Notes: a model not told the origin generated them from the letters alone. A stretch of DNA of 64,000 nt from Candidatus Heimdallarchaeum aukensis (GCA_021513695.1 CP084166.1:768001-832000), one strand, 5' to 3'; positions 8,621-38,788 are shown, numbered from the stretch's first letter. Translations and numbers: made by a program.

Positions 8621-10060
8621 ATGAATAGTGTTGATGGGGTTAGCCTGGTAATCGGGGACATATGTAAAAGAGACATTCGTTTTTTATTAGAAAAAAGAAA
8701 AAATTCTCTCCTACCTTATAGTCCATATTGCTTTTCAACAGTTTTTGGAGACATTACCGAAGAAGATAAACAATTATTTGAAAAAATAAAGAAAAAATAT
8801 GGGTTAATTACAACAGATATGTTTTATCGATTAGTGGGTTTAAGGATTTTAATTCAAAAGGAACTTATAATTATTCAACAAAGAAAGGAGGAAGAAACAA
8901 ATAATCCTCAAGAACAGATTCATAACATAGATCAATTTCAGTTGTGCCTATTCCTTCATTCAATGCATGAGTGCGGAGAATATTCTTTTTTTTCGGAAAA
9001 GATAAATAAACAGATAGTTATAAAGCAATATTTCTTTACTCCTCCCTATTCTGTAAAGATTAAAAAAAGAAATACAAAGTGGTTTAATTTTAATAAACTA
9101 TCCAAAAAAATAAACAACTTAAATATTCATTTAGACCCTCTTTCAAACCTTTTTTTTGAAATTTTTTATGATAGAAAATTTAATTTATTTGAAACAATTA
9201 AACGCTTAGAGTATAAAGAAGAAAAATCCAAAATCAATCCAAGTTTATGGCTTTTCAAACATAAATCACCTATTGTTCCTCCAGATAATTATATCAACAC
9301 ATTTGTTGTGGGAAATAAATACAAATATATTATTGATCCTGGAGCTGACAGTAAAAAAGAAATGATAAAATCAGGTTTTCTAGACTTTATAGAAAATCAT
9401 GTAACAGAAATTGATGGAATACTACTGTCACATGGTCATTTAGATCATTGTAATCAGATCGATTTCCTTAGGAAAAATTATGGTATCCCTGTTTTTAGTT
9501 CCAAAAATACAGCAAAAAAATTATTAGAAAAAACCAATTTTAAGATTAACGGTTTCTTAAATGATAACCAGCTCATAGACCTCGGGAACTCACCTTTTTC
9601 TAAAAAAAGATGGTATCTAAAAGTAATAAACCTTAATGGTCATACAAAGGGCTCTATTGGTTTCCTTGATATGAATCGTGGTTTCTTATTTAGCGGGGAT
9701 TTTATTTTGGAAGGAAGACAAACCATTGTAGATCCAAATTATGGTTCTTTGGTAGATTTAAGGAGAAATATTAAAAAATTGCTTAAACTAAATATCACTT
9801 TTATTCATCCAGGACATGGAGATATCTTTAAGTTTGACAGAAAATGGGTAAAAACAAATCTTACATTACTAGACAATCAAGAAGAAAAAATAAAAGAGAG
9901 TATAGAATCAGGATATTCTTCAATTGAAGAGATAACTAAACATGTTTTCTCTGATAGTACAGCCCACATAGGAAGATTTCTCACTTTAGCCCACATTCAA
10001 CATCTCGAAGAAAAAAATGTTGTTATAAAAAGAGGAGAGGACTATTTCTTGAATAAGTAA
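8621..10060 (+). CDS. metallo-beta-lactamase-fold hydrolase with an uncharacterised ~230-aa N-terminal region
   Basis: SHGHLDHC (HxHxDH) and later HPGHGD in the C-terminal half. I recognise no motifs in the N-terminal half. Confidence 0.7.
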   Translation: MNSVDGVSLVIGDICKRDIRFLLEKRKNSLLPYSPYCFSTVFGDITEEDKQLFEKIKKKYGLITTDMFYRLVGLRILIQKELIIIQQRKEEETNNPQEQIHNIDQFQLCLFLHSMHECGEYSFFSEKINKQIVIKQYFFTPPYSVKIKKRNTKWFNFNKLSKKINNLNIHLDPLSNLFFEIFYDRKFNLFETIKRLEYKEEKSKINPSLWLFKHKSPIVPPDNYINTFVVGNKYKYIIDPGADSKKEMIKSGFLDFIENHVTEIDGILLSHGHLDHCNQIDFLRKNYGIPVFSSKNTAKKLLEKTNFKINGFLNDNQLIDLGNSPFSKKRWYLKVINLNGHTKGSIGFLDMNRGFLFSGDFILEGRQTIVDPNYGSLVDLRRNIKKLLKLNITFIHPGHGDIFKFDRKWVKTNLTLLDNQEEKIKESIESGYSSIEEITKHVFSDSTAHIGRFLTLAHIQHLEEKNVVIKRGEDYFLNK

Positions 10061-24326: not shown

Positions 24327-25022
24327 TTAGCTTCCCTTTACAGGAGACCATGCGTCTTCGTTGGATAAGAATAAGATAGGATACTCATTGTTATCAATTA
24401 AAATTACTCTTCCAAAACTGATTTTGTAATTTCCATCTTCTCTTTCTAGATTTGCATTAAAGGTCACTGTTATTATGTACTTTAGTTGTATTCCCCTACT
24501 ATCAATTTCATCAATAATATTTCCAATAGAAGGATATTGTCCAGTAGCAAATGTTGAATAGGCGTCTGTTTCTATATCCAATTTTACAAACATGAAGGTA
24601 CTTGAACCATTTAATGTTTCATTATATTCTGTGTAAAATGTATCAGTATTATTATCCCACAAACTTATTCTCATTGTTAAGTTGAAGATGTGGACATTAT
24701 CTTTAAAACCACCATAGTTTTGAGTATTTACAGTTGCGAGGAAGTCTTCTTCTCCTATAATAAGTTCTGTAATGTTATTAATATAGCTTAATTCAGGAAG
24801 AGCACCTAATGAATCCCAATAACTCGAACTTCCATTTATTTTTGCTGTTTCGTTTAATATCATTGCACTTCTTCCATCTTGCACAGTGTCTATAATGTTT
24901 ATTTCAGAATAGAATTGCTCGGGGGTTGGAGGAACAGTACTGTAATGTATAAGTATTATCGGTAAACCTAGTAAGAGAAATCCCAAAATAATTACAAAAA
25001 AGTTGAAACTTGAGTTACTCAT
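24327..25022 (-). CDS. secreted/anchored protein with many N-glycosylation sequons
   Basis: N-terminal hydrophobic segment FNFFVIILGFLLLGLPIILI. Multiple NxS/T sites (NGS, NIT, NLT, NNT, NET, NGS). Confidence 0.6.
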   Translation of the reverse strand: MSNSSFNFFVIILGFLLLGLPIILIHYSTVPPTPEQFYSEINIIDTVQDGRSAMILNETAKINGSSSYWDSLGALPELSYINNITELIIGEEDFLATVNTQNYGGFKDNVHIFNLTMRISLWDNNTDTFYTEYNETLNGSSTFMFVKLDIETDAYSTFATGQYPSIGNIIDEIDSRGIQLKYIITVTFNANLEREDGNYKISFGRVILIDNNEYPILFLSNEDAWSPVKGS

Positions 25023-25103
25023 AGATAGTATTAGAATCTTATAGTTAAAAAATCTTATCTTTTTAAAAAGTAATAAAAAATTAAGAAGAGATTTATACCT
25101 TCT

Positions 25104-26375
25104 CTATTTAGTGTTCTTCTTTACCTTTGAAAAAATAAAATTAACAGTAAAAACGACCACAAATAAAGCAAGCGTACCTATAAAGTAATAGATTGCGGGA
25201 TTGTTTAAGAATGTGTAAACACCAAAATAGGAAGTTGTCCATCTATATCCATCTTTAGAGAAGAAGAAAGCTATTTCAGGTGTTTGAAGACTTGATTTTA
25301 CACTTGGCCCTTGTTCTGTTGCTACAACGACATTGTCCTTAAATGTTGTTACTTCAGGAACACGTTCATAATAATCATCATGAAGTGGAGAAGAAATGTT
25401 ATGGAATTCTAGCGTTTCTTCTTTTGTAATGTCTTCTACCCAGAAGCCCCAGAGAAACATTTCATAACGATTGACTTTATGGATAGTTGTATTGCTGATA
25501 TCCTGGGCAACAACGTAAAATCCATCATTCCATCTTGTTAATGATGGATACAACAAACCTACATCTTGAGCAACAACTTCAGTTAAGTTTGCATCTGCTA
25601 AATCTAATTGGAAAGGTGCTCCTACAGATATTCCAGAACTAAATGAACTACCATCTACGGTGGATGTAAGTTTAACTAGATTGTCTTCTGTATAAGTAAT
25701 ATACAATAAATTATTATATGAATATAAGTTAAAATCTCTTCCCAAACTTATTGAAGCAGAAGTTACTTCTGTACTATTTTTAAATGTCTGTAAATCAAAA
25801 TGAACAATGCTTGTTAATACTCGTGTATGTACGATAACTTTGACTTCATAGCTGAAAAATATAACTAATTCATTATTGAGAATAGCAGAGTCAAACCACA
25901 CAAAATCCTTATTGAAGACAGTAGAATTACCCAGTTCTACATAGTCGCTCCATGTTTTTCCATCATCATCTGAATATTTCATAAAGAAATATGTGAAATC
26001 AGTGTCATTTCTTTGTATTGCAAAAAGTACCATAGTTCGTCCATTATAATATATAGCATCACTCTTCTGAACTTTAAAGGAAGTTTTATTGATCACAAAA
26101 GTTGTCGGAGTTATCTCTATTTCTTCAGTATCATGCGTTTTAAACTCTGTAACAGTTTCATAACATGGTCTAGCATAGATTTCCGAACTAACTACTCTAT
26201 CAGCGTCATAACCAATTTTAGTATAAATTAGCAAATACTGTTCAGGAGAAGTTTCTATGAAATATGGACTCTTTTCGTGATAAAGTATTTTTGCCTTTGC
26301 TACATAAGGATTAAATGCATTAAGAAGCAAAATGAATATTGATAACAAAACGATTTTTTTCACTGCTCTTCTCAT
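25104..26375 (-). CDS. BNR/Asp-box (sialidase-like beta-propeller) surface protein with C-terminal TM anchor
   Basis: Signal-like N-terminus, a perfect Asp-box SDDDGKTW plus a weaker SKDGYRW, and the C-terminal helix IYYFIGTLALFVVVFTVNFIF followed by a basic tail. Confidence 0.6.
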   Translation of the reverse strand: MRRAVKKIVLLSIFILLLNAFNPYVAKAKILYHEKSPYFIETSPEQYLLIYTKIGYDADRVVSSEIYARPCYETVTEFKTHDTEEIEITPTTFVINKTSFKVQKSDAIYYNGRTMVLFAIQRNDTDFTYFFMKYSDDDGKTWSDYVELGNSTVFNKDFVWFDSAILNNELVIFFSYEVKVIVHTRVLTSIVHFDLQTFKNSTEVTSASISLGRDFNLYSYNNLLYITYTEDNLVKLTSTVDGSSFSSGISVGAPFQLDLADANLTEVVAQDVGLLYPSLTRWNDGFYVVAQDISNTTIHKVNRYEMFLWGFWVEDITKEETLEFHNISSPLHDDYYERVPEVTTFKDNVVVATEQGPSVKSSLQTPEIAFFFSKDGYRWTTSYFGVYTFLNNPAIYYFIGTLALFVVVFTVNFIFSKVKKNTK

Positions 26376-27074: not shown

Positions 27075-28376
27075 TTGCAATACTATATTCCAGAATGGGA
27101 CGATATGGTTAGTTCAAGGTATGACTATTGGAATGACACTGAACTACCTGATTCTAGAAAGGTTTATGCACATGAAATTTATCCCAAACCCAACTATGAT
27201 GGAATTTTAGTATCTAGAATGAAGATTGAAGAGAGTAAAACTAAGATTGAAAAAATAAAGAAAGTAGGAGTGCATAGATTTTTCAAGTTCAATGGACCCA
27301 TTTTTGGAGATTGTGGAGCTTGGGGATATATAAATGAAAAAGATCCTCCATTTGAAACAAAAGACATGTTAAATTACTATGAATCTTTTGGCTTTAATAT
27401 AGGTGTTTCCATTGACCACTTATGTATTCCCCAAGTTAAATCAGAATGGTATTATAGACAAGAATTGACACTAAAAAATGCAGAAAAATTTTTCAAATAT
27501 TATGAAAGTGGAGACTATTCTTTTGAAGCAGTAGGGGCAGCTCAAGGATGGGATTTAGAATCGTATAGATATGCAGTGCAAGAATTGCTAGATATAGGAT
27601 ATGATTTTATTGCCTTAGGAGGATTAGCACGAGCACAAACAGGAATAATTATTAAGATTCTTAAAAATATTCAAGATTTAATTAAAGAAAAGAAAATAAA
27701 GATCCATTTATTTGGTGCTGCAAGATTAGATGGCCTACGTGCATTCAATAATTTAGGAGTAACAAGTTTTGATTCAGCTTCTCCTCTTAGAAATGCGTGG
27801 TTAGGTTCTAAAAAGAATTATAGAGGTTTAGATTGGAAGGGTTATACTGCTATTCGTTTACCTTTCCTTTCAAGAACAAAGAAATATCAAAAGTTAGTAG
27901 AGGAAGGACTATTCACTATCAAAGAGCTAGAAGAATTCGAAAAGTCTATCTACGCTCTCCTAAGAAGATATGAAATAGAAAAATCTAGAAGTCCAGAAGA
28001 AATAATAGAAGCTTTTGAAATGCTCAACCAGACATTTACTTTAAGAGATGATCTTAAAGAAGACTACCTTGAAATCTTGAATGAACGACCATGGGAAAAA
28101 TGCTCTTGTCCTGTTTGCAAAGAAGCAGGAATGGATGTAGTTATTTTTAGGGGGAACAACAGGAACAGAAGAAGAGGTTTCCACAACACCTATGTTTTTT
28201 ATCAATTAATGCAGAAAATTCTTAATGAACCTAATTTCAAAGGAACTCCGCATTTAAATTTAATAAATGAAAAAGATTTTTCAATTCCAATTCAAGTTCA
28301 AGCGAAAAAATTAAAATCCAAATTTAACAAACAAACAAAAATTGATAATTTTATAGAACAAATAAGTGAGGAATAG
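27075..28376 (+). CDS. tRNA-guanine-transglycosylase-fold base-exchange enzyme, DpdA-like (no PUA domain)
   Basis: Ordered TGT motifs: FGDCGAWGY, IALGGLARA, HLFGAARLD, and SFDSASPLRNAWLG (catalytic Asp position). The Zn site is CSCPVC followed ~21 aa later by His. The N-terminus YIPEWDDMVSSRYDY..VYAHEIY..YDGILVS resembles DpdA rather than canonical TGT. TTG start with GGAGAG upstream. Confidence 0.65.
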   Translation: MQYYIPEWDDMVSSRYDYWNDTELPDSRKVYAHEIYPKPNYDGILVSRMKIEESKTKIEKIKKVGVHRFFKFNGPIFGDCGAWGYINEKDPPFETKDMLNYYESFGFNIGVSIDHLCIPQVKSEWYYRQELTLKNAEKFFKYYESGDYSFEAVGAAQGWDLESYRYAVQELLDIGYDFIALGGLARAQTGIIIKILKNIQDLIKEKKIKIHLFGAARLDGLRAFNNLGVTSFDSASPLRNAWLGSKKNYRGLDWKGYTAIRLPFLSRTKKYQKLVEEGLFTIKELEEFEKSIYALLRRYEIEKSRSPEEIIEAFEMLNQTFTLRDDLKEDYLEILNERPWEKCSCPVCKEAGMDVVIFRGNNRNRRRGFHNTYVFYQLMQKILNEPNFKGTPHLNLINEKDFSIPIQVQAKKLKSKFNKQTKIDNFIEQISEE

Positions 28377-28378
28377 CA

Positions 28379-29200
28379 ATGAATTCAGAGTTTGAGAATA
28401 TAGCCACCGAAATTATGATACAAGTGGGGACTGAAAAAGAAGAAGCATTAAGATGTCTTTATTACGAACCAAAAAATGAAATAAAACAAACTATTGTTCT
28501 TATTCCAGGTTTTTTTTCTCTGCCTAGTGCTTGGGACGAACTTTTAATAAATGCAAAAGAAGATTATAGAATATTCTTGATTGAAACCAGAGAGAAGCAT
28601 ACAGCAAAAATAAATAAAAAAAGTGACTTTTCTCTGGAACGTTTTGCTAATGACATCGCTGAAGTAATTGATTACTTAATGTTAAAAGATTATATTTTAG
28701 TTACAAGTAGTATGGGAGGAGCTTTCACATTAACTGCAATGAAAGAAAGCTTAATTCACCCTAAACATAGTTTTCTGGTAGGTCCTGTTTTAAGAGTTGA
28801 AATTCCTGATTGGTCATGGCCTTTAGTTAGAATAACTACTCCTTTCTTTTATCGTTTTATCTTAAAACCTTCAATAAAACTTTATGTCAGAAGAAAGTTC
28901 GAAAGAGATCAAGCTGAAAAATACTGTGTTTCATTAGATAACTTAGAAATTAGAAGAGTAAAGAAAACAATGCTAACGCTTAAAAAATTCCGCATTACTG
29001 CTGAAGACCTTAATGTCATAAATTCTCATTGTGTCCTCATAGGAGCTGAAAAGGATAAGCTCCATCAGTCTCAAATTACAAAATGGATTCATGAACAAAT
29101 ACCTAATTCAGACTATGTAGATTTAGGGTCAAATGTAGTTGCACATGGAATTCCACTCTTAGAATTAATAGAAAAAACAATAGAAAAAGATAATAATTGA
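28379..29200 (+). CDS. alpha/beta-fold hydrolase
   Basis: IVLIPGFFS, the nucleophile elbow VTSSMGGA, a late Asp (GAEKDKL) and His (VVAHGIP). Starts 2 nt after the TGT-like stop. Confidence 0.7.
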   Translation: MNSEFENIATEIMIQVGTEKEEALRCLYYEPKNEIKQTIVLIPGFFSLPSAWDELLINAKEDYRIFLIETREKHTAKINKKSDFSLERFANDIAEVIDYLMLKDYILVTSSMGGAFTLTAMKESLIHPKHSFLVGPVLRVEIPDWSWPLVRITTPFFYRFILKPSIKLYVRRKFERDQAEKYCVSLDNLEIRRVKKTMLTLKKFRITAEDLNVINSHCVLIGAEKDKLHQSQITKWIHEQIPNSDYVDLGSNVVAHGIPLLELIEKTIEKDNN

Positions 29201-29278
29201 TTCCTATTATAAAGCAAATTTCTTTTATAAATACCTAATATACCAAAATTTAAAAATTCTTATTTTTTTAATTTAAGT

Positions 29279-30871
29279 ATGCAATTTCTCGCACCTTTTT
29301 CTATAAGACATTCAAAGATATTGGATCAAGATACTTTAGAACAACTAAAAAACGCTCTAAGCAATATAAAAGGGAAAAATATTCTTGTGGAGTTTACCCG
29401 AAACTTTTCTACATTGCTAAAAAACAAAGAAAAAGATAAAGATTTCACAAACTTGGCTTTAGATATCTTTTTCTCAATTGAAGATTATGAAAAAATCCTA
29501 GAATACTCATCGCCCCTTTACGCCGCAGAGTATTATTTTTATCGGGCATTAGCTTTCTATAAACTTAATCAGTTCAATAAGATTGCAAGCCTTAAGCTAC
29601 AATTTGAGATGAAATTTGAGAGAGCATTAGATTTACCTCGTAATCGCTTAATACTTGCTTTTTTAGATCTTTTTATTACTCTTAAAGAAAATCCTGAAGA
29701 AGTCGATCTTAAACTAGAAGAAATAGGTGCGTTTTTAGATAGCCAAGATGAAGAATTCAAAAGTAAATTTTGGGTCATAATAGTATTTTCCTATTATTCT
29801 GAACTCTTATTTATAAGAGATCACTTGAATAAAACAGAAGAAATTGCTAGATTGATTCTTTCCTATTCTCTTCAAAATCAAGACCCATACTTACAAAGTA
29901 ATGCACTCATATTGCTTTCCTCAATTTATATAAGAAAAGGAGAATTTAGAAAAGCAAAACAAATGATTAAATCCTCTCTTGTTCCTGTTAATCAAACAGG
30001 AGAACTAACAAATAAAGCTAAAATACTAAACAATCTTCTGCTTTTAGATTTAGCAAAAATGGACTATCTAAAAGCAGTTGATAGAATTTCAAAGATGAAA
30101 GAACTAAAAATAAGTGATACAAAAAGAAAAGAGTTAGAGATACTTGAACTCAAGTTAAAAATTCATTTAAAACTTGAAAATAATATAGAAGAAAAAATTA
30201 ATGAAATAACTTCAGATTTAGAAAAAGAAGATGAATTCTATCAAGATATTCTCCTCCTACAGTGTTGGTATAGCTTAAAAAAGAAGAACTATGACGAAGC
30301 AAAGAAAACAATAGAAGAACACCTAAAACTCACAGAAAATAACCTAAGTTCATTGTTGAAAAATCGATATTATTATGGATTATATCATAAAGAAGTAGAA
30401 GACTATGAAAAAGCTTTTTCAGATTTTGAGGAAGTAATTGAACTAAGTAAAAAAGACTACAAAATAGAATTATTAGTAAAAAGTTTGATGCATTTCCTTG
30501 ATCTTGCTTTCTCTAATAATAACGAAAAGTATTCGCTTTCTGAAATTATTCAAAAGATAAACATTTTGGAAGAAACTTCAACAAAGCAATTTATTCCTAA
30601 ATTGCAAGTAGATGCTTTAATGATAAAAATGATTTTCACACTTCTAAATTCAACAGAAATAGACATTATGGAAGATTGGGAAAATGCAATGAAAAAAGTT
30701 CATAAATTTAGATACATTGATCGTGTTAAACAACTAAACATAATAAGAAGTTGCTCTGAAAACAATTCTGAAAATAACAATATATATCAACTTGAAGAAT
30801 TATTCAAAGAAATAATACAACCTTACGAATGCTTCTTTTTTATTAAGAAGCCAAAGAAAGAAGAGGGGTAG
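29279..30871 (+). CDS. TPR-like all-helical repeat protein
   Basis: 530 aa of repeated helix pairs with Y/A/L spacing (AEYYFYRALAFYKLNQFNKI, LLSSIYIRKGEFRKAKQMI, YYYGLYHKEVEDYEKAFSDFEEVI). No NTPase motif. Confidence 0.6.
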   Translation: MQFLAPFSIRHSKILDQDTLEQLKNALSNIKGKNILVEFTRNFSTLLKNKEKDKDFTNLALDIFFSIEDYEKILEYSSPLYAAEYYFYRALAFYKLNQFNKIASLKLQFEMKFERALDLPRNRLILAFLDLFITLKENPEEVDLKLEEIGAFLDSQDEEFKSKFWVIIVFSYYSELLFIRDHLNKTEEIARLILSYSLQNQDPYLQSNALILLSSIYIRKGEFRKAKQMIKSSLVPVNQTGELTNKAKILNNLLLLDLAKMDYLKAVDRISKMKELKISDTKRKELEILELKLKIHLKLENNIEEKINEITSDLEKEDEFYQDILLLQCWYSLKKKNYDEAKKTIEEHLKLTENNLSSLLKNRYYYGLYHKEVEDYEKAFSDFEEVIELSKKDYKIELLVKSLMHFLDLAFSNNNEKYSLSEIIQKINILEETSTKQFIPKLQVDALMIKMIFTLLNSTEIDIMEDWENAMKKVHKFRYIDRVKQLNIIRSCSENNSENNNIYQLEELFKEIIQPYECFFFIKKPKKEEG

Positions 30872-30952
30872 TTTTTCTTTAGAAATTTTGTAATTAAAAA
30901 AAAGTTAAATAGGAAAAAAAGGATATTTTTTTACCAAAAAAGAGGAATAAAA

Positions 30953-31120
30953 ATGACACAAAAATGGATTTGTACTTTATGTGGCTACATTTATGACCCT
31001 GCCGAAGGAGACCCTGACGGAGGAATCGCTCCAGGAACAGCTTTTGAAGATATCCCTGAAGATTGGGTTTGTCCTGAATGCGGAGCTGCAAAAGAAGATT
31101 TCGAACCCTATGAAGAATAA
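30953..31120 (+). CDS. rubredoxin
   Basis: A 55-aa ORF below the track cutoff: [55 protein letters not shown]. It has two CxxCG knuckles and the conserved YDP and PG..F..P..W.CP pattern. AGAGGA lies upstream. Confidence 0.92.
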
Positions 31121-31142
31121 TAACAAAGTTTTAAATTGTTTT

Positions 31143-32327
31143 TTACAACTTTCTATTTTTTCTTGATAATTGAACTATTTTTTTTATTACTACAAATTCT
31201 GTTTCATTTAGGACGTTTTTTGTGATTTTTATTTTTTCTTGCTGAATTCTTACTTGGTTTGCATATTCATTCTCAACTAATAGCTCCATCTCCTCTGTTA
31301 TCGCTCCATCTACATTTGTTTTAATAACTTCCATGAGGTTATTATATTTTTCTAGTATTTTTTCATAAACAGCTAATTTTGAAGAGAATTTTGATGTATA
31401 CTTATTTATTTCTTCAGCTCGTTTAATGTCTATAGAAGTTAAACTATCAGTAGCTTCAGATAAATCTCTTAATTCTTCTTCACTAAATTCTCTTTTAACA
31501 AAACTTGAAATTATAGAAATAAGTGATTTATCCAGCAAATAATCTGTTTTTCTCTCATAGCTTATACTAGGGATTGATTTTGATAGAGAAGATTTTTTAC
31601 TTTTGAAGGTAGTATCTTTTTTTTCTGTTGTTAAATACTTTTCAACAAGAACTAATTTTTCATTCCACCATTCCTTAAAAGAAAGACCAGGAGTATATTC
31701 AATAGCAAAATTTAGAAAAATTGTTCCTTTAGCTAAAACTGTTGCGCCTATAGGTTTTTTGAATATGGGTTTACTTGTTCTTTTACCTACAAAGTCATAT
31801 GTACTAAAAGAATGAAAGTTTGAGGGAAGATCTTTTGCTTTACCAAAAAAAATTATTTCTTTTCCAAGATTTGCTAAATCTTTGAGATCTCCTAAAGTTA
31901 CTAAATAATCTTCTCCTAACGAAAGATAAACAAGATCATAAGTTTTTTTGGATAATTTTCTAACAGATTCTGGAATAGCTAATTTTTCTGCTCTTTCTTT
32001 TATTGCTTTTTTTGATAAGCCTGAAAAAGTGCACTCATAAGGAGGAAGAAGTTCATTCTCATTAACTAATCCAAAACCTGCAGAAATAATGTAATAATCA
32101 ACTTCAGCTTTTGACGAAAGAATCTTAACAGCTTTTTTTATTGCAAGAGCTTGTCCACCTATGTATAATTCTCCTGCTTCTCTTAATAATGAAGAAAATT
32201 TTTCTTTTGCACTTTCTCTTTGATCTTTTGTTTCTAGGTCCTTACATGTTGGTTGATCATCATGTTGTACAGACTTTTTCTTTCCACAAGAGTTAATAAC
32301 AAGTATTGAAGGTTTCAGAGATCTCAC
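31143..32327 (-). CDS. DUF6884-like N-terminal domain fused to a long coiled-coil
   Basis: ILVINSCGKKKS, ELYIGGQA and YYIISAGFGLVNENELLPPYECTF match my recollection of the DUF6884 pattern (SC.k.K .. LY .. ilSA..GL..p...l.PYd). The C-terminal ~170 aa are heptad-rich. Confidence 0.45.
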   Translation of the reverse strand: MRSLKPSILVINSCGKKKSVQHDDQPTCKDLETKDQRESAKEKFSSLLREAGELYIGGQALAIKKAVKILSSKAEVDYYIISAGFGLVNENELLPPYECTFSGLSKKAIKERAEKLAIPESVRKLSKKTYDLVYLSLGEDYLVTLGDLKDLANLGKEIIFFGKAKDLPSNFHSFSTYDFVGKRTSKPIFKKPIGATVLAKGTIFLNFAIEYTPGLSFKEWWNEKLVLVEKYLTTEKKDTTFKSKKSSLSKSIPSISYERKTDYLLDKSLISIISSFVKREFSEEELRDLSEATDSLTSIDIKRAEEINKYTSKFSSKLAVYEKILEKYNNLMEVIKTNVDGAITEEMELLVENEYANQVRIQQEKIKITKNVLNETEFVVIKKIVQLSRKNRKL

Positions 32328-32333
32328 CTAAAG

Positions 32334-32753
32334 CTATTCAGTATCCTTTTTTGCCAAATATCGATTATAAAATCTTTTAATTTTCTTTTTTTCGAGATCA
32401 AAATCTAGATCTTTACTATTTTTGCCTTCTTGCCTTTCCATTTTATTGAGTTTACTTTGAATTTTGCTTAGTTTTAGAGCAAGCATTGAATTTCTTCTAA
32501 AAAGTTCACTGTTTTCAAAAAACAAAACCCCATATGCTTTTCTAAGTTTACTATACTTTATTGTTAATTCATTATATCGTTCTCTTAATTCTTCAAGATT
32601 CTTAAGTAGACTAACCTCATCAATTTGTAAATCCTCGCTGTTTAATGCCAGAAAATCATAATAATCAAGGAGTGTGTTAATTATATCATCAGTATATTCA
32701 GTAACATCTTCAAAAATAGCAGGAATCTTGACATTAGTGATCATTTTCTTCAT
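32334..32753 (-). CDS. coiled-coil protein
   Basis: 139 aa, helical and charged. Its start overlaps the upstream stop by 4 nt, and a 6-nt gap separates it from the downstream gene. Confidence 0.5.
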   Translation of the reverse strand: MKKMITNVKIPAIFEDVTEYTDDIINTLLDYYDFLALNSEDLQIDEVSLLKNLEELRERYNELTIKYSKLRKAYGVLFFENSELFRRNSMLALKLSKIQSKLNKMERQEGKNSKDLDFDLEKKKIKRFYNRYLAKKDTE

Positions 32754-33106
32754 TTTGCTACACCTTTTAGAATACCATCTAACTTCTCTTCAAGTTCAGT
32801 AATAACATTATAATCTTCATTATATTCTTTCTTCATTTGTTTTTCTTCTTCTATACTTTTTTTCAATTTTTCAATTTCTTTTTCTCTTTCTGGAATTTTC
32901 TCCAAAAGAGCCTTATATTCTAGTATATACTCCACAAATGCCCAAGAAAGCTTTTTTTCTTTGTTATATTCTGTAAGAAACTTAAAAAATTGGTTTACTT
33001 TTTCTATTATTGTTTCAGATTTTTCCTTTCTCTCTTCAGCGATTCTAGCAATTTTTCGCTGAATTCTTGAGGAAAAAGAAATCTTTACTTTCTCTTGTTT
33101 TTTCAT
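32750..33106 (-). CDS. possible ribbon-helix-helix DNA-binding domain plus coiled-coil
   Basis: The N-terminus KVKISFSSRIQRKIARIAEERKEKSETIIEKV fits the strand-helix-helix of CopG/Arc-type RHH. The remainder is coiled-coil. First gene of the minus-strand trio. Confidence 0.4.
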   Translation of the reverse strand: MKKQEKVKISFSSRIQRKIARIAEERKEKSETIIEKVNQFFKFLTEYNKEKKLSWAFVEYILEYKALLEKIPEREKEIEKLKKSIEEEKQMKKEYNEDYNVITELEEKLDGILKGVAK

Positions 33107-33246
33107 TTACAACTTTTTTTTCAGCTTGCTGTTTTAAAAGTTTATTAAGTTTAACTCAAAATCAGATTTTTCAAAACTTTTTTCTTTTACTTCCATCATT
33201 TTTTTTAAATCAAATAACTTTAATAGCTCTAATTCAAAGTTAAATT

Positions 33247-33576
33247 ATGGAAGAAATAAGTGTCAAGGAGTATTTAGAAAAATCAGGACAATTACTAGAA
33301 AAATATAGATTTAATATTGAAAATCTTCGACATCAGAGAAAACAAATAGAACAGAAATTTTTCCTCCCTCACGAGATGGTTGACTTTTTTCATACAAATA
33401 AAAGCGAATACAAAGTTTGGTTAAAAATTCAAGACATGATTCTCACACTTGAAGATGCTTATGCAGACCTAGTTGGGAGTATGATGGAAGCAAAAGCTAA
33501 CCCTGATAATTATAATTATTATTTAGAAGACAAACGTATTACAATTATGCAACTAAAAGAAACTGAAGAAGAATAA
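33247..33576 (+). CDS. small helical hypothetical protein
   Basis: 109 aa, charged and helical. Diverges from the trio and precedes the phosphoesterase gene. Confidence 0.45.
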   Translation: MEEISVKEYLEKSGQLLEKYRFNIENLRHQRKQIEQKFFLPHEMVDFFHTNKSEYKVWLKIQDMILTLEDAYADLVGSMMEAKANPDNYNYYLEDKRITIMQLKETEEE

Positions 33577-33678
33577 AGAAATAAGTGATAAAGAAAAGAA
33601 ATTAAATTAACAATTTTAAAAAGTAAATTCACTGTTTTTCTAATAAGATTTATTTAGGGTGTTTGAATAATATAATAT

Positions 33679-35265
33679 TTGATGAGATTTGTTTTATTTT
33701 CTGATACCCATATTGGTGGAAGATATGATGAAATGATATTGATGAAAGGTATAGATTTTATTAATAACATTGATGGAGATATTTTTATTCACTGTGGAGA
33801 TTTAACTGGTTCTGGCACTTTGGCTGAATATGAGATTGCTAGACTTTATTTAGAAAAAATCAAGAAAAGGCCTTTTTTCATTGTTCCTGGAAATCATGAC
33901 TGCAAAAATGTGGGTGATTTACTTTTTGAAGAAATAGTTGGTGAGCGTTTTTGGGTAAAGACATTCGAAAAAAAGAAAACTCGGATTCTTGGTCTTGACT
34001 CTACTGAACCCGATGCAAATACTGGAAGAATGGGTCCTAAATCAATAAAAAGAATTTATGAAGAATTTGAGGATTTACCAGAATATTGGTTAAAAGTTTT
34101 AGTTTTTCATCATCAGACTTTACCAATTCCCTATACTGGTAGAGAAAGAAGTGCAATCAAAGATGCAGGAGATGTAGTGAAAGCTATTCTTGATTGTAAC
34201 ATTCATCTTGTTTTCAATGGTCATAGGCACATTTCTAATGTCTATAAGATGTCTGATGGAGTAGTAAATGCTTGGATTATTAATGTTGGTACATTATCTT
34301 GTAAAAAAACTAGATATAGAGAAGAGTATAGCTTAACTGTCGTTGATGCTTCTTTAAAGAAAAACAACCTTGCTATTCGTAGTATACTACTTAAGAAAGA
34401 GCCTATCAGAGAAGTTGTAAAATATTCTGGTAAATTCCAACGTTTTATTGCCCCTATGAATAAGAAACACATAGCAACAATAATTCAAATAGGCAATACA
34501 GCTTTTTCTAATTCACGATTTAGGATGGGTAATTTCTACAAAGGTCTCGAAACAATTAATCTCATCCCTTGTGATGTAGTTGTCCATTGTGGAGAAGTTA
34601 CAGGTGCCTCCTATGTCAATGAGTTTCAAAGAGCAAAGGCTTTATTATCTCAAATAGAAAAACCTCTTATTGTTGTTCCAGGAGATAATGATGCTTTTCC
34701 ACTTGGTTGGGATTTGTTTCCTGAGTACATTGGTGATCCTAACCCCTATTTTGAGAATGAGCATTTGATTGTTAAAGGGTTCAATACTTGCTTAATTGAC
34801 GAACAAGAGGGAAGACTCGGAAGAGGAAATATGAAAGAGATGATAACAACATTTGAGAATAAATCAAAAATAGGAGTAGTAGCTTTTCATCATTCAATAA
34901 TGCCTTTACCTCACTCTAAACATGATGCAGAGCTAATAGATGCAGGAGATGTTCTTGCTGCCATAGTAAACCACAGAATCAATCTCGTTTTAACTGGAGC
35001 TAAAAATAGAAGCGGGTGTTGGCAAGTTAACGACACTGTATTTGTAAATGCTGGAACACTCAGCTCTGAAAATATTACTACAAGAGACGGAAATAGTTTC
35101 AACATAATAACCATTAGCCAAACAGATATAGGTAAACTTTACGAGGTCGATGAGTATTTTGTTGAAACAAACGAAAGAAAAACTATTGGAGTTTTCCATA
35201 TTTCTGATAGGGGGATACCTATTCTCATTCCTGATAGAAAGGTTCCCAACACCATTCATTTATGA
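33679..35265 (+). CDS. tandem calcineurin-like metallophosphoesterase: intact N-domain plus degenerate C-domain
   Basis: Domain 1 has FSDTHIG, CGDLTGSG, PGNHD, FHHQ and NGHRH. Domain 2 has IGNTAFS, CGEVTGAS, PGDNDAF, FHHS and TGAKNRS at the same positions, so most metal ligands are lost. Confidence 0.8.
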   Translation: MMRFVLFSDTHIGGRYDEMILMKGIDFINNIDGDIFIHCGDLTGSGTLAEYEIARLYLEKIKKRPFFIVPGNHDCKNVGDLLFEEIVGERFWVKTFEKKKTRILGLDSTEPDANTGRMGPKSIKRIYEEFEDLPEYWLKVLVFHHQTLPIPYTGRERSAIKDAGDVVKAILDCNIHLVFNGHRHISNVYKMSDGVVNAWIINVGTLSCKKTRYREEYSLTVVDASLKKNNLAIRSILLKKEPIREVVKYSGKFQRFIAPMNKKHIATIIQIGNTAFSNSRFRMGNFYKGLETINLIPCDVVVHCGEVTGASYVNEFQRAKALLSQIEKPLIVVPGDNDAFPLGWDLFPEYIGDPNPYFENEHLIVKGFNTCLIDEQEGRLGRGNMKEMITTFENKSKIGVVAFHHSIMPLPHSKHDAELIDAGDVLAAIVNHRINLVLTGAKNRSGCWQVNDTVFVNAGTLSSENITTRDGNSFNIITISQTDIGKLYEVDEYFVETNERKTIGVFHISDRGIPILIPDRKVPNTIHL

Positions 35266-35343
35266 TATAACTTAGATATTTAACTAGTTATATCGATAGA
35301 TATTGTAAAAAAATTTAAATCTAAATAATGAAGTGTACACCTT

Positions 35344-36627
35344 ATGCACAAAGAGGTAAAAAATTCAAAAAACGTTTCTTTTCCAGTTGTAATAAAAAAT
35401 TTAGATGAGAGAATGAATAAATGGTTGAAAGAAGCACAGAAACGTATATTTAGTATTGCTGCAGGAGATAGGATTTCATTCATAGCTTCTGCCATAGCAC
35501 AAGTTGGTTTTGGCAAAATCCTCTATGCTGCAAATGAACTTGGGGTTGATATTGAAAAAACCAAACCATACATTTTTTTTGCTCCTGACGGAACTTGCTC
35601 ATACAACGAAATTAGAATAAAAAGAGGTTTTACATATGGTTGTATATTCAAAGCAGATTTCGAGGGACTGATTGGTACTAATAACTCAATGCCAAACGGT
35701 TGTGGATATAGCTTATATGAACTTAAAGATTGGAACGATGATGAAACTCTAATCAGAACTTTAAACCAAATAAAGCAAAATATAACAGAAGAACAAGCAA
35801 AAGAACTAGGAAAAGGCAATCATTTTATTGCTGTTTACAAGGTTTTAGACGCTATATCAGGAGAAGATACAGAAAGGAGAATGGTATTACTTCATTGTAG
35901 TGGGCATGATTTAAGCAAAAAACCACTTTATTTCTTCAACTGGTTAGAAGAAACAGATGGATGTCATAAAGTACAAACACCACATGGAGAAATTTACCTT
36001 TTAGAAAGTGAGGCAAAAAAGAGATATATCAAAGAATTTGAGAAACTTGACAAACACAATAAAGAAGCTCGTGTCACTGTCATGAAAGAGTTGTTTAGAG
36101 ACTCTTCCTATGAATTAATTTCAAGTATCACTCACCAAGGGTTATATAATAACGGTTCATATCATTTTTTGGGAATACAAAAAAGCGAAAAACTTATTCC
36201 TATAGCTTTCAATGCAGATGAAGGAGGAATTGCTGTCAAGACAAAGAAGAATCTGTCAGGACAATTTATAGATCAATGGAAACAAGGAACAAGAGTGAAA
36301 GATTTAGGATATGAAAGAGAATTTAAAGAGCTCAACTTTACTCCACACGGAGGAGGATACGAATTCAAATACCCAATCAAACGTTTTGTTATATTCTTAA
36401 ATGATCAAGGACTGGATCACTTCTCGGTTGAATTAAAAAAGCCGAAAGAGCCAAGTATTAAACTTATTGCTTCCTATTTCAAACCTATTAGAGAATACAT
36501 GACATATAGGAGAAAGTTACCAGTAATGAAAGAAGTCTTTAAAGCGGAGCTAGCAAACCACATTTATGATCTTGTTCCATTTATGCAATTACATCCTAAA
36601 GTTAGTATTCCTGGAGGACATTACTAA
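35344..36627 (+). CDS. hypothetical protein with RtcB-like motif series (possible divergent RNA ligase)
   Basis: Ordered motifs MPNGCGYS, LGKGNHFIAVYKV, VLLHCSGHD and FTPHGGGYE resemble RtcB PD.H.G.G, G.GNHF.E, HSGSRG and HGAGR. The spacing differs from canonical RtcB. Confidence 0.3.
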   Translation: MHKEVKNSKNVSFPVVIKNLDERMNKWLKEAQKRIFSIAAGDRISFIASAIAQVGFGKILYAANELGVDIEKTKPYIFFAPDGTCSYNEIRIKRGFTYGCIFKADFEGLIGTNNSMPNGCGYSLYELKDWNDDETLIRTLNQIKQNITEEQAKELGKGNHFIAVYKVLDAISGEDTERRMVLLHCSGHDLSKKPLYFFNWLEETDGCHKVQTPHGEIYLLESEAKKRYIKEFEKLDKHNKEARVTVMKELFRDSSYELISSITHQGLYNNGSYHFLGIQKSEKLIPIAFNADEGGIAVKTKKNLSGQFIDQWKQGTRVKDLGYEREFKELNFTPHGGGYEFKYPIKRFVIFLNDQGLDHFSVELKKPKEPSIKLIASYFKPIREYMTYRRKLPVMKEVFKAELANHIYDLVPFMQLHPKVSIPGGHY

Positions 36628-36651
36628 TCAAGATTTAACCAAAGTGATAAT

Positions 36652-37395
36652 ATGCATTCTAACCCTTACATTATAGCTCATCGGGGTTTTTCTTCTAAAT
36701 ACCCCGAAAATACTATTCTAGCGATTAACAGGTCAGTAGGAATAGCAGATATTGTTGAATTTGATGTTCAACTTACAAAAGATAGGTATGTAGTTTTATT
36801 TCATGATGAAACAACAAAAAGGATTTTCCCAGAAATCGAGGAGAAGAGAATCCAAGACTTATATTATCATGAACTAAAAGAATTAAATGCTGGTAAATGG
36901 TTTTCATCAAAAATAGAAAAACAAACTATTCCCAAACTCGAGGAAGTAGTAGAAAAGATAAACAACAAAATCTCAATGATTATTGAATTAAAGAACAAGG
37001 GAAATAAAGAAAAAAAAGAAGAACTAGCTACTATAGTATTGAATATCCTAGATGACAACAATGTCTCTTTAAACAAAGGGTATCTTTCAGTTCGAGACTT
37101 AGAAATGCTTGAAATTATTAACTCTCTTTCTTCAAAATACAGAATTGGATTAATGCAGAAAACGAGAACACCGGAAGAATTTATAGAACTAGTTAAAAGT
37201 AACAATCTTGAATTTGCTCAAATAAGATGGAAGAATTGGACTGAGAGTAATTGGCAAGAACTTTTGTCTTTAGAAACTAAAATTACTGCTTTTTATGCTG
37301 ATGAAGAAAAAGAATACAATTTTTTAATTGAAAAACAAGTTTATGGAATTTTCACTAATTTTCCAGATAGATTAAGAAAACTGCTGAACATGTAG
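36652..37395 (+). CDS. glycerophosphodiester phosphodiesterase
   Basis: IIAHRGFSSKYPENT, EFDVQLTKDRYVVLFHDET. Confidence 0.85.
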   Translation: MHSNPYIIAHRGFSSKYPENTILAINRSVGIADIVEFDVQLTKDRYVVLFHDETTKRIFPEIEEKRIQDLYYHELKELNAGKWFSSKIEKQTIPKLEEVVEKINNKISMIIELKNKGNKEKKEELATIVLNILDDNNVSLNKGYLSVRDLEMLEIINSLSSKYRIGLMQKTRTPEEFIELVKSNNLEFAQIRWKNWTESNWQELLSLETKITAFYADEEKEYNFLIEKQVYGIFTNFPDRLRKLLNM

Positions 37396-38242: not shown

Positions 38243-38788
38243 GTGATACAGAGGAACTACAAAATAATACTTATTGGAAATGCTCTTGTTGGAAAAACTG
38301 CTATTGTAACACGTTTTGCTAAAGATTACTTTGAACAGAACTATTTGAGAACGCTAGGAATCAATTACTACATAAAGACACAAGTAATTACTAATGTAGA
38401 AGTAAAGATGATTATTACAGACACCGCAGGACAAGAAGCGTTTCAACGCCTAAGAAGTTCGTATTACAAGGGGGCAAGAGGAGCAATAATTGTTTATGCA
38501 ATAAATGACAGACATAGCTTTGGACAAGTTGATTATTGGAAGAATGAAATGTTCAAGACTTTAAAAGAAATCCCAATAATAATTGTCGGAAATAAAATTG
38601 ACTTAATCGATCAAAGAAGAATATCAACAAGTGAAGGACGCTTGTTAGCGAAAAAATTGGGTTGTTTATTTATTGAATCATCTGCTAAAACAGGAGAAAA
38701 TATTGATAAAATCTTTGAAATGATAGTTAAAGATATACTAAGAAAAGATAATTTAATAACAGAAGAAAAAGAAGAAAGTTCTACTTAA
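38243..38788 (+). CDS. Rab-like small GTPase
   Basis: G1 is GNALVGKT, G3 is DTAGQE, then YYKGARGAIIVY, G4 is GNKIDL and G5 is SAKTGEN. There is no C-terminal Cys, so no prenylation motif. Confidence 0.85.
   Translation: MIQRNYKIILIGNALVGKTAIVTRFAKDYFEQNYLRTLGINYYIKTQVITNVEVKMIITDTAGQEAFQRLRSSYYKGARGAIIVYAINDRHSFGQVDYWKNEMFKTLKEIPIIIVGNKIDLIDQRRISTSEGRLLAKKLGCLFIESSAKTGENIDKIFEMIVKDILRKDNLITEEKEESST

Follow-up and report, generated by a model that had tools for sequence, protein, structure and literature searches.

A putative reduced Dpd-type DNA modification module beside a separate phosphoesterase/RtcB-fold/GDPD gene trio in the Asgard archaeon Candidatus Heimdallarchaeum aukensis

We analyzed a 64,000-nucleotide stretch of the Candidatus Heimdallarchaeum aukensis genome (GCA_021513695.1, CP084166.1:768001-832000; hereafter "the window", in whose coordinates positions are given), focusing on a block at 27075-36627 that an earlier note, made from the sequence, had described as a single accessory nucleic-acid modification/repair locus of about 9.5 kb. 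The window has a G+C content of ~30%. Open reading frame (ORF) calls and direct reading of the sequence agree with that note on the coordinates and orientation of every ORF in the block: a plus-strand gene run (27075-31120) is followed by three minus-strand genes (31143-33106), and plus-strand genes resume at 33247, so that gene sets diverge from an AT-rich spacer (Table 1). The left part of the block encodes a DpdA-family DNA-guanine transglycosylase and a DUF6884 protein of the DpdC family, and the right part encodes a tandem metallophosphoesterase and an RtcB-fold protein, with a glycerophosphodiester phosphodiesterase (GDPD) just past the edge. Overall, we consider it reasonably likely that the stretch holds two independent gene sets lying side by side, a reduced Dpd-type modification module and a separate phosphoesterase/RtcB-fold/GDPD trio.

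Table 1. Genes and features of the block at 27075-36627 and of its right edge. Cutoffs are those of the respective profiles.
Feature	Coordinates	Strand	Length	Support
DpdA, DNA-guanine transglycosylase, tRNA-guanine transglycosylase (TGT) superfamily	27075-28376	+	433 aa	NCBIfam, PADLOC and PDB matches
Alpha/beta-fold hydrolase	28379-29200	+	273 aa	Pfam Abhydrolase_6, 29.6 bits (cutoff 26.3); start 2 nt past DpdA stop
Tetratricopeptide-repeat (TPR) protein	29279-30871	+	530 aa	Pfam TPR_2, 30.8 bits (cutoff 27); TPR_12 weak
Rubredoxin	30953-31120	+	55 aa	Pfam Rubredoxin PF00301, 87.8 bits (cutoff 23)
DpdC-family DUF6884 protein; catalytic-type domain 1-245, helical C-terminal extension 267-389	31143-32327	-	394 aa	Pfam, PADLOC
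Coiled-coil-like protein, no family	32334-32753	-	139 aa	Sub-threshold coiled-coil matches only
Protein without profile support	32750-33106	-	118 aa	Strand-helix-helix N-terminus compatible with ribbon-helix-helix (RHH) by eye only
Divergent intergenic spacer, AT-rich	33107-33246		140 bp	Sequence read directly
Heimdallarchaeaceae-restricted protein	33247-33576	+	109 aa	No significant family match in Pfam, NCBIfam, PADLOC or PHROG
Tandem metallophosphoesterase, one ORF, two Metallophos domains	33679-35265	+	528 aa	Pfam Metallophos, 69.6 bits (cutoff 21.5), two stretches
Divergent RtcB-fold protein	35344-36627	+	427 aa	AlphaFold2 model and Foldseek
GDPD, past the right edge of the block	36652-37395	+		Pfam GDPD, 108.6 bits

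The first gene of the block encodes a DpdA, as the earlier note had supposed. Its product scores 388 bits against the NCBIfam DpdA equivalog NF041059 (cutoff 200), covering positions 1-405 of the 406 in the profile, matches the PADLOC DpdA model at 1.2e-105, and aligns over residues 2-383 with Salmonella Montevideo DpdA (PDB 7UI4; 3.6e-67). The NCBIfam models for archaeal TgtA and bacterial Tgt gave only 46 bits (cutoff 350) and 31 bits, respectively. D79, D114, and D233 of the window protein correspond to Asp95, Asp130, and Asp256 of the S. Montevideo enzyme, and its zinc site (CxCxxC...H) comprises C343, C345, C348, and H370; all of these residues, whose roles we take from PMC10164549, are invariant in 26 Asgard homologs. 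A histidine-to-glutamine change at His181 was considered as a feature setting the Asgard clade apart and dropped, since glutamine also occurs in the canonical metagenomic DpdAs examined. In a rough neighbor-joining tree, built without support values and of indicative use only, the Asgard DpdA clades group with a clade of bacterial fusion proteins and apart from DpdB-linked DpdAs. An identical DpdA is encoded on a 70-kb Logan contig. A scan of viral contigs for close relatives returned none, with a best match at 38% identity. The NCBI names of the Asgard proteins are already "DpdA" and "DUF6884 domain-containing".

The second gene of the pair encodes a DUF6884 protein (32.3 bits against Pfam DUF6884; cutoff 30), again in line with the earlier note, and is matched by the PADLOC DpdC models at 1.3e-10. 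To place it, we used a canonical bacterial cluster, DpdC-DpdB-DpdA-DpdB (L078), verified with PADLOC (3e-65, 3e-124, and 5e-161). The DpdC of this cluster itself scores 40.6 bits on Pfam DUF6884, and in phmmer it matches the window ORF at 3.2e-8, a match that is reciprocal. The CxxxK and SAGxG motifs, named by the Pfam curators (PMC11701544), are invariant across Asgard DUF6884 proteins, bacterial fusion proteins, and canonical DpdC, and the window protein has a YaaA-type fold. By these sequence comparisons, DUF6884 is the Pfam family of DpdC, the canonical partner of DpdA (see also PMC12235509). The core of the block can thus be recognized as a reduced Dpd modification module, which departs from the earlier view that the gene combination resembles no described Dpd system.

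Beyond its catalytic-type domain, the window DUF6884 protein carries a helical C-terminal extension, for which we found no match to a known domain. In Asgard loci with a short form of DUF6884, a small ORF between the DUF6884 and DpdA genes is homologous to this extension of the long forms (1e-33), and the Asgard module therefore has three parts: a DpdC-like core, the extension, and DpdA. The extension is a separate ORF at L012 9173-9964, L013 3215-4060, and L017 9285-9770, and is fused in the long forms P0212, P0213, P0217, and P0218. Asgard DUF6884 proteins of 520-548 aa combine the helical part with a beta-rich domain of ~130 aa; the window protein has the helical part only.

We collected 97 DpdA loci, Asgard and bacterial, and compared what accompanies DpdA in each. 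The DUF6884 gene adjoins DpdA in eight of the nine non-redundant Asgard loci, the two being separated by 2.8 kb in the window, and a hidden Markov model (HMM) of DUF6884 built from Asgard proteins finds it next to DpdA in every other Asgard locus that has sequence on the relevant side. Protein searches yielded eight DpdA/DUF6884 pairs on contigs matching in size. When the proteins of the nine Asgard loci were clustered all against all, DpdA and DUF6884 with its extension were the sole families present in nine of nine; the next family occurs in three. With the same HMM, which was run in a single pass and built from stand-alone Asgard domains only, we found the domain fused to DpdA in ~25 bacterial loci, and as an ORF of ~310 aa lying ~1 kb upstream of DpdA in ~15 canonical loci that contain DpdB. 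Bacterial DpdA homologs with 44-49% identity are, among the matches listed, mostly DUF6884-DpdA fusions of ~680 aa. Apparent C-terminal DUF6884 fusions in L040-L077 were rejected as spurious, the jackhmmer profile having drifted into DpdA by way of the fusion proteins. The earlier note had proposed a search for genes that travel together: DpdA with DUF6884 does so, as do the metallophosphoesterase, RtcB-like, and GDPD genes, and the whole block does not.

The other components of bacterial Dpd systems were not found around the Asgard pair. PADLOC gave no DpdB match among the locus proteins scanned, and phmmer searches, for which the queries were two verified DpdBs and one DndB-like protein, returned nothing in the 64-kb window or in 12 Asgard loci; the same searches for partners found DpdB in 28, DndB in 11, QueC in 27, and QueD in 31 bacterial loci. 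QueC and QueD are present in zero Asgard DpdA loci, and phmmer detected no QueC, second TGT paralog, DUF5591, or canonical RtcB in the window. Models for DpdD-K had no PADLOC match among the nine main locus ORFs and a 423-aa gene of the left flank, the rubredoxin and GDPD not having been scanned, and no restriction component was matched by PADLOC among the Asgard-locus genes scanned. PHROG scans of locus proteins produced generic matches only. The assertion that canonical partners are missing thus holds for DpdB, which was not found, and fails for DpdA and DUF6884, which are each other's canonical partners as DpdA and DpdC.

In Salmonella, DpdA inserts preQ0 in place of guanine in DNA, and DpdC turns the nitrile into an amide (PMC10164549). 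Within the module that we propose, the Asgard DpdA would most likely exchange guanine for preQ0 in double-stranded DNA, with D233 as nucleophile and D79 as acid/base, the preQ0 being assumed to come from the cell's archaeosine pathway. The DpdC-family DUF6884 protein would then, most likely, hydrate the nitrile of the inserted base to a carboxamide (dADG). Since neither a DpdB ATPase nor a clustered preQ0 gene accompanies the pair, no restriction gene was detected beside it, and its housekeeping neighborhoods vary by locus, we picture it as an "orphan" that would mark chromosomal DNA on its own. DpdB would be either unneeded, as for phage DpdAs (PMC6884629), or replaced by the conserved C-terminal extension of DUF6884. 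We infer from these comparisons a DNA substrate, a dPreQ0/dADG product, independence from DpdB, and a role for the extension. A more specific scenario, in which Asgard archaea (Heimdall, Thor, Loki) constitutively write dPreQ0/dADG into their own chromosomes with a two-protein machine lacking DpdB and a restriction partner, the extension taking over the DNA-loading role of DpdB, is a tentative suggestion that we hold to be possible rather than probable. The published Nanopore libraries were prepared with a PCR barcoding kit, and the DNA of Ca. H. aukensis had in addition been amplified by MDA (PMC8813620), which would have removed such marks.

Several observations weigh against the orphan-module reading. 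The Asgard sample comprises nine non-redundant loci and no more. The DpdC models align with only ~110-180 N-terminal residues of the window DUF6884 protein, and NCBIfam models gave zero matches to it at E<=0.1. S. Montevideo DpdA requires DpdB and ATP in vitro (PMC10164549), and the proposal that the extension may substitute for DpdB has to answer this. A substrate of DNA instead of RNA is suggested by family membership, and the genes around the Asgard DpdAs are housekeeping-like and differ by locus. A pseudouridine synthase gene lies near the DpdA/DUF6884 pair in L012 and L017. On a Thorarchaeota contig (L018), the DUF6884 gene is divergently oriented and a stand-alone DUF5591 gene (9256-9774) directly follows DpdA. 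We take this DUF5591 to be the C1-type domain of the archaeosine tRNA-guanine transglycosylase ArcTGT. Finally, a Heimdallarchaeaceae contig whose DpdA is 69% identical (L009) carries seven co-directional genes in the order 118-aa gene, 139-aa gene, DUF6884, DpdA, hydrolase, TPR, and rubredoxin. The window differs from it by one inversion and keeps the seven genes at 27075-33106 contiguous, so a functional role of the extra genes is possible.

This last observation is the ground for the alternative that the seven genes at 27075-33106 form a unit specific to Heimdallarchaeaceae, in which the extra genes regulate or target the Dpd pair or supply its effector. Contiguity and shared direction in L009, contiguity in the window despite inversion of a sub-block, and a hydrolase gene that begins 2 nt past the DpdA stop codon all speak for such a unit. 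Its distribution speaks against it. Homologs of the hydrolase, TPR, rubredoxin, 139-aa, 118-aa, and 109-aa genes occur in only two of the 97 DpdA loci, L009 and the complete genome of Candidatus Heimdallarchaeum endolithica PR6 (CP084167.1; L003), in both of which the 139-aa gene lies between the 118-aa gene and DUF6884, and the TPR protein of L009 has 39% identity. Beside a DpdA that is still 63% identical (L016), the hydrolase and the other extras are gone, as they are from all other Asgard and bacterial loci. L009 also shares wider neighbors with the window (a Na/H exchanger, a CBS gene, and the 109-aa gene), and common descent can therefore account for the contiguity; in that contig the 109-aa homolog is 3.5 kb away from the Dpd genes and does not adjoin a metallophosphoesterase. 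One sample with an identical DpdA (L002) has a frameshift in the hydrolase, and no defense model in PADLOC matched the extras tested, the rubredoxin not having been scanned. We judge a seven-gene unit unlikely, and regard the hydrolase, TPR, rubredoxin, and two small coiled-coil genes as lineage-specific neighbors that are accessory at most.

The individual assignments of these neighbors fared unevenly. Profile and fold searches upheld most of the families named in the earlier note, including the hydrolase, TPR protein, and rubredoxin (Table 1), and did not uphold an RHH-type regulator at 32750-33106: no RHH match appeared in Pfam or NCBIfam at E<=0.1 or in the PDB at E<=10, and these searches returned only coiled-coil noise. 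Over 2.65 kb, the contig of the sample with the broken hydrolase (L002; SRR15988959) departs from the window by nothing but a 1-nt deletion at L002 position 1763 (window 28510), which splits the hydrolase into ORFs of 55 and 207 aa and could reflect either misassembly or a genuine frameshift. A DUF6687 gene lies directly upstream of DUF6884 in one Heimdall lineage (L012 7212-8174; L013 1308-2270), with genes for a GNAT protein and a pseudouridine synthase just past it. One Asgard locus (L010 11270-12166, minus strand) has a second, truncated TGT/DpdA-like paralog of ~300-320 aa next to or near DpdA.

In a second alternative, the substrate of the Asgard DpdA/DUF6884 pair is RNA (tRNA or rRNA), and the pair belongs to a housekeeping archaeal 7-deazaguanine pathway. 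The TGT superfamily is ancestrally tRNA-directed. Housekeeping-like surroundings free of DpdB and of detected restriction genes would suit an RNA enzyme, as would the pseudouridine synthase genes of L012 and L017 and the DUF5591 gene of L018. The window protein, however, belongs to the DpdA equivalog by a wide score difference over TgtA and bacterial Tgt (388 bits versus 46 and 31). Moreover, its nearest non-Asgard relatives are found in bacterial loci with QueC/QueD, helicases, Uma2 nuclease-like, and DndB-like genes, and DpdC acts on DNA (PMC10164549). We therefore consider modification of RNA rather improbable.

We think it highly improbable that the pair is a DNA-lesion or repair couple in which DUF6884 recognizes and flips damaged or abasic sites and DpdA exchanges the base: the Pfam authors report that YfjM, a DUF6884 member, emerged among the interactors of abasic and RNA-base lesions, and they model it flipping a nucleotide, YaaA, to which it is related, binds DNA and acts in oxidative stress (both PMC11701544), and a rubredoxin is nearby, but this DUF6884 branch is linked specifically to DpdA, its motifs are common to canonical DpdC, and no other repair genes are conserved near the nine Asgard pairs.

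The reading of an orphan Dpd-type pair leaves the right part of the block to be accounted for. The earlier note listed a "phosphoesterase pair" there; a metallophosphoesterase is indeed present, and the pair resolves into a single ORF with two domains. By our reading of its sequence, the metal-binding motifs DxH/GD/GNHD/H/GHxH are intact in domain 1, and domain 2, which reads GNT/GE/GDND/HH/GAKN at these places, is degenerate and no longer has most of them. The protein weakly matches the GpdQ glycerophosphodiesterase (PDB 2DXL; E 4e-4). Its match to the PADLOC model PDC-S10 (1e-16) reflects the generic Metallophos domain only, and we rejected it as a known anti-phage phosphoesterase, with 52.8 bits against NCBIfam DS9_1 falling far under the cutoff of 420.

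The RtcB likeness of the 427-aa protein downstream, also raised by the earlier note, was recovered by fold. An AlphaFold2 model (predicted local distance difference test score 89; predicted template-modeling score 0.89) gave nine significant Foldseek matches in the PDB, all of them RtcB chains (including 8ODP, 4DWQ, and 1UC2), with E-values of 7.5e-9 to ~4e-6, template-modeling scores of ~0.45-0.49, and ~10% identity. Sequence profiles found nothing above threshold in Pfam, NCBIfam, PADLOC, or PHROG, Pfam RtcB (PF01139) reaching only E 0.27 and 10.9 bits (cutoff 27), and a profile of the 427-aa family matched no chain among the PDB sequences. An hhalign alignment to Escherichia coli RtcB (probability 61%, E 8e-5) pairs H160 of a GNHF motif with H168 and H184 of HCSGH with H185. 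C120, H264, and H335 (in PHGGGY), likewise invariant in the family, resemble the motifs of RtcB C78, H281, and H337 (the nucleophile, in SHGAGR) by eye only, and the equivalent of RtcB Asp75, the aspartate of DxGCG, is not kept. Invariance of C120, H160, H184, H264, and H335 suggests, at the level of sequence, a live active site.

Homologs of this protein form a family of 88 clusters at 90% clustering, mostly from Heimdallarchaeia, with ~45-57% identity across most of the Heimdallarchaeia members listed; the loci with members include L014, L015, L101, and L102. Its profile retrieves 244 representatives at E<=1e-3 among 1.84 billion proteins; as a number this small leaves out most canonical RtcBs, the family is distinct from them. 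The members that we looked up are all annotated as "hypothetical" and include other Asgard groups, an Altiarchaeales metagenome-assembled genome (MAG), and a Myxococcota MAG.

The RtcB-like gene keeps the company of the phosphodiesterase genes whether or not DpdA is present. GDPD lies directly downstream of it in L003, L015, L101, and L102. In L015 and L101 the metallophosphoesterase and GDPD flank it, and in L102 GDPD adjoins it with the metallophosphoesterase 5 kb off, in all three cases without DpdA or DUF6884. Outside the genus, none of the 97 DpdA loci has the metallophosphoesterase, RtcB-like, and GDPD genes, and in GCA_026702845.1 the RtcB-like gene and the DpdA pair lie on separate contigs. 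The three genes at 33679-37395 are thus a separate conserved Heimdallarchaeia trio that is independent of the DpdA pair; the 109-aa gene is not upstream of the metallophosphoesterase in L015 or L101. The trio probably acts on phosphodiester or phosphate ends, and with a weakly GpdQ-like domain 1 and GDPD, two of its three genes point to glycerophosphodiester chemistry.

Judged by the refuting condition that the earlier note had itself set, these data largely refute the idea that all genes at 27075-36627 form one accessory modification/repair or defense system, to which we now give next to no credence: every part does plausibly touch nucleic-acid or phosphoester chemistry and the whole block is kept in Ca. 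H. endolithica, but the flanks are syntenic there too, which makes the conservation silent on selection for the block, and elsewhere only sub-blocks occur, the trio existing without DpdA and the two sets lying on different contigs of GCA_026702845.1. What stands of the earlier proposal is that the locus holds nucleic-acid modification genes, those for DpdA and the DpdC-family protein.

Nothing in the genomic setting marks the block as an island. We looked in the window for tRNA genes, flanking repeats, and a marked G+C or compositional break, and found none. A genome-contig search with the single DpdA protein returned six loci, one of them archaeal (L003). This Ca. H. endolithica locus, whose DpdA is 89% identical, has collinear orthologs (76-96% identity) for each window gene between 23232 and 38788, a span that includes an Arf/Ras-type GTPase at 38243; being fully syntenic, flanks included, it is uninformative on island status and on selection for the block. 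The left flank (24327-26375, minus strand) carries genes of 231 and 423 aa with no family match in the libraries run on each, and their homologs among the fetched loci are limited to close Heimdallarchaeum relatives.

We found no report of a cellular archaeal DpdA/DpdC pair in the literature searched, and recent surveys, which demanded dpdAB, recovered bacteria only (PMC12235509). Should the pair act on DNA, cellular archaea would join bacteria and viruses as carriers of 7-deazaguanine DNA modification; under the more specific scenario above, the closest prokaryotic relatives of eukaryotes would have a chromosomal, possibly epigenetic DNA hypermodification. The pair would also provide a natural minimal system for studying how DpdA can function when the DpdB ATPase is missing, and what purpose such marks serve where no cognate restriction enzyme exists. 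Separating the two gene sets corrects a likely mis-grouping, in that the neighboring phosphoesterase and RtcB-like genes should not be annotated as Dpd-like. The uncharacterized 427-aa RtcB-fold family, highly conserved and with fixed phosphodiesterase neighbors, for its part offers a tractable starting point in the search for new activities in end joining or phosphotransfer.

Among known systems, the 427-aa protein is closest to the RNA ligase RtcB, with which it shares the fold. Its GNHF and H-x-S-G motifs align with those of the RtcB metal site, and by eye its cysteine in xGCG and an HGxG at the position of the guanylylated histidine resemble RtcB motifs. It differs in length, archaeal and human RtcB having ~50-80 residues more, and in having a tandem metallophosphoesterase and GDPD as gene neighbors instead of archease or RtcA.

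The DpdA/DUF6884 pair is best compared with the bacterial Dpd restriction-modification system (dpdA-K; Thiaville 2016, Yuan 2019; PMC10164549, PMC5699537). Both have the same DpdA equivalog with its catalytic aspartates and zinc site, both have a DpdC-family partner with the CxxxK and SAGxG motifs, and in both the two genes are neighbors. In contrast to the bacterial systems, the Asgard pair comes without a DpdB/DndB-like ATPase, clustered preQ0 genes, or detected dpdD-K restriction genes, and it lies in an archaeal chromosome amid housekeeping genes, not in an island. Its DpdC homolog shares the N-terminal core only, to which a helical extension is added (also a beta-rich one in other Asgard archaea), sometimes as a separate ORF.

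The bacterial DUF6884-DpdA fusions, for example those of cyanobacteria and Calidithermus (loci L004-L008), contain the closest non-Asgard relatives of the Asgard DpdA and the same two catalytic modules, but the modules are joined and the Asgard extension is missing. QueC/QueD are usually encoded in their loci, where a second TGT paralog in truncated form is often present, as are DndB-like, helicase, or Uma2-type nuclease genes. Across L004-L008 and ~20 further fusion loci, we noted recurrent QueC, QueD, a DndB-family gene (11 loci), and an unannotated family of ~300 aa (12-16 loci); truncated TGT paralogs occur in many of these loci (for example L006 18059-19015, L004 15250-16200, and L008 11250-12203), and L006 additionally has HerA, a DEAD-box helicase, and a Uma2-type nuclease-like gene (PADLOC PDC-S17). 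These bacterial fusion loci look like an undescribed Dpd-related defense arrangement. The DpdA systems of phages and archaeal viruses (Hutinet 2019; PMC6884629) work without DpdB, as the Asgard pair would, and use preQ0 from the host or of their own making. Their DpdAs belong to other subfamilies, are partnered with Gat-QueC, QueF-L, or ArcS instead of DpdC, and serve a bulk DNA modification that evades restriction (PMC6884629).

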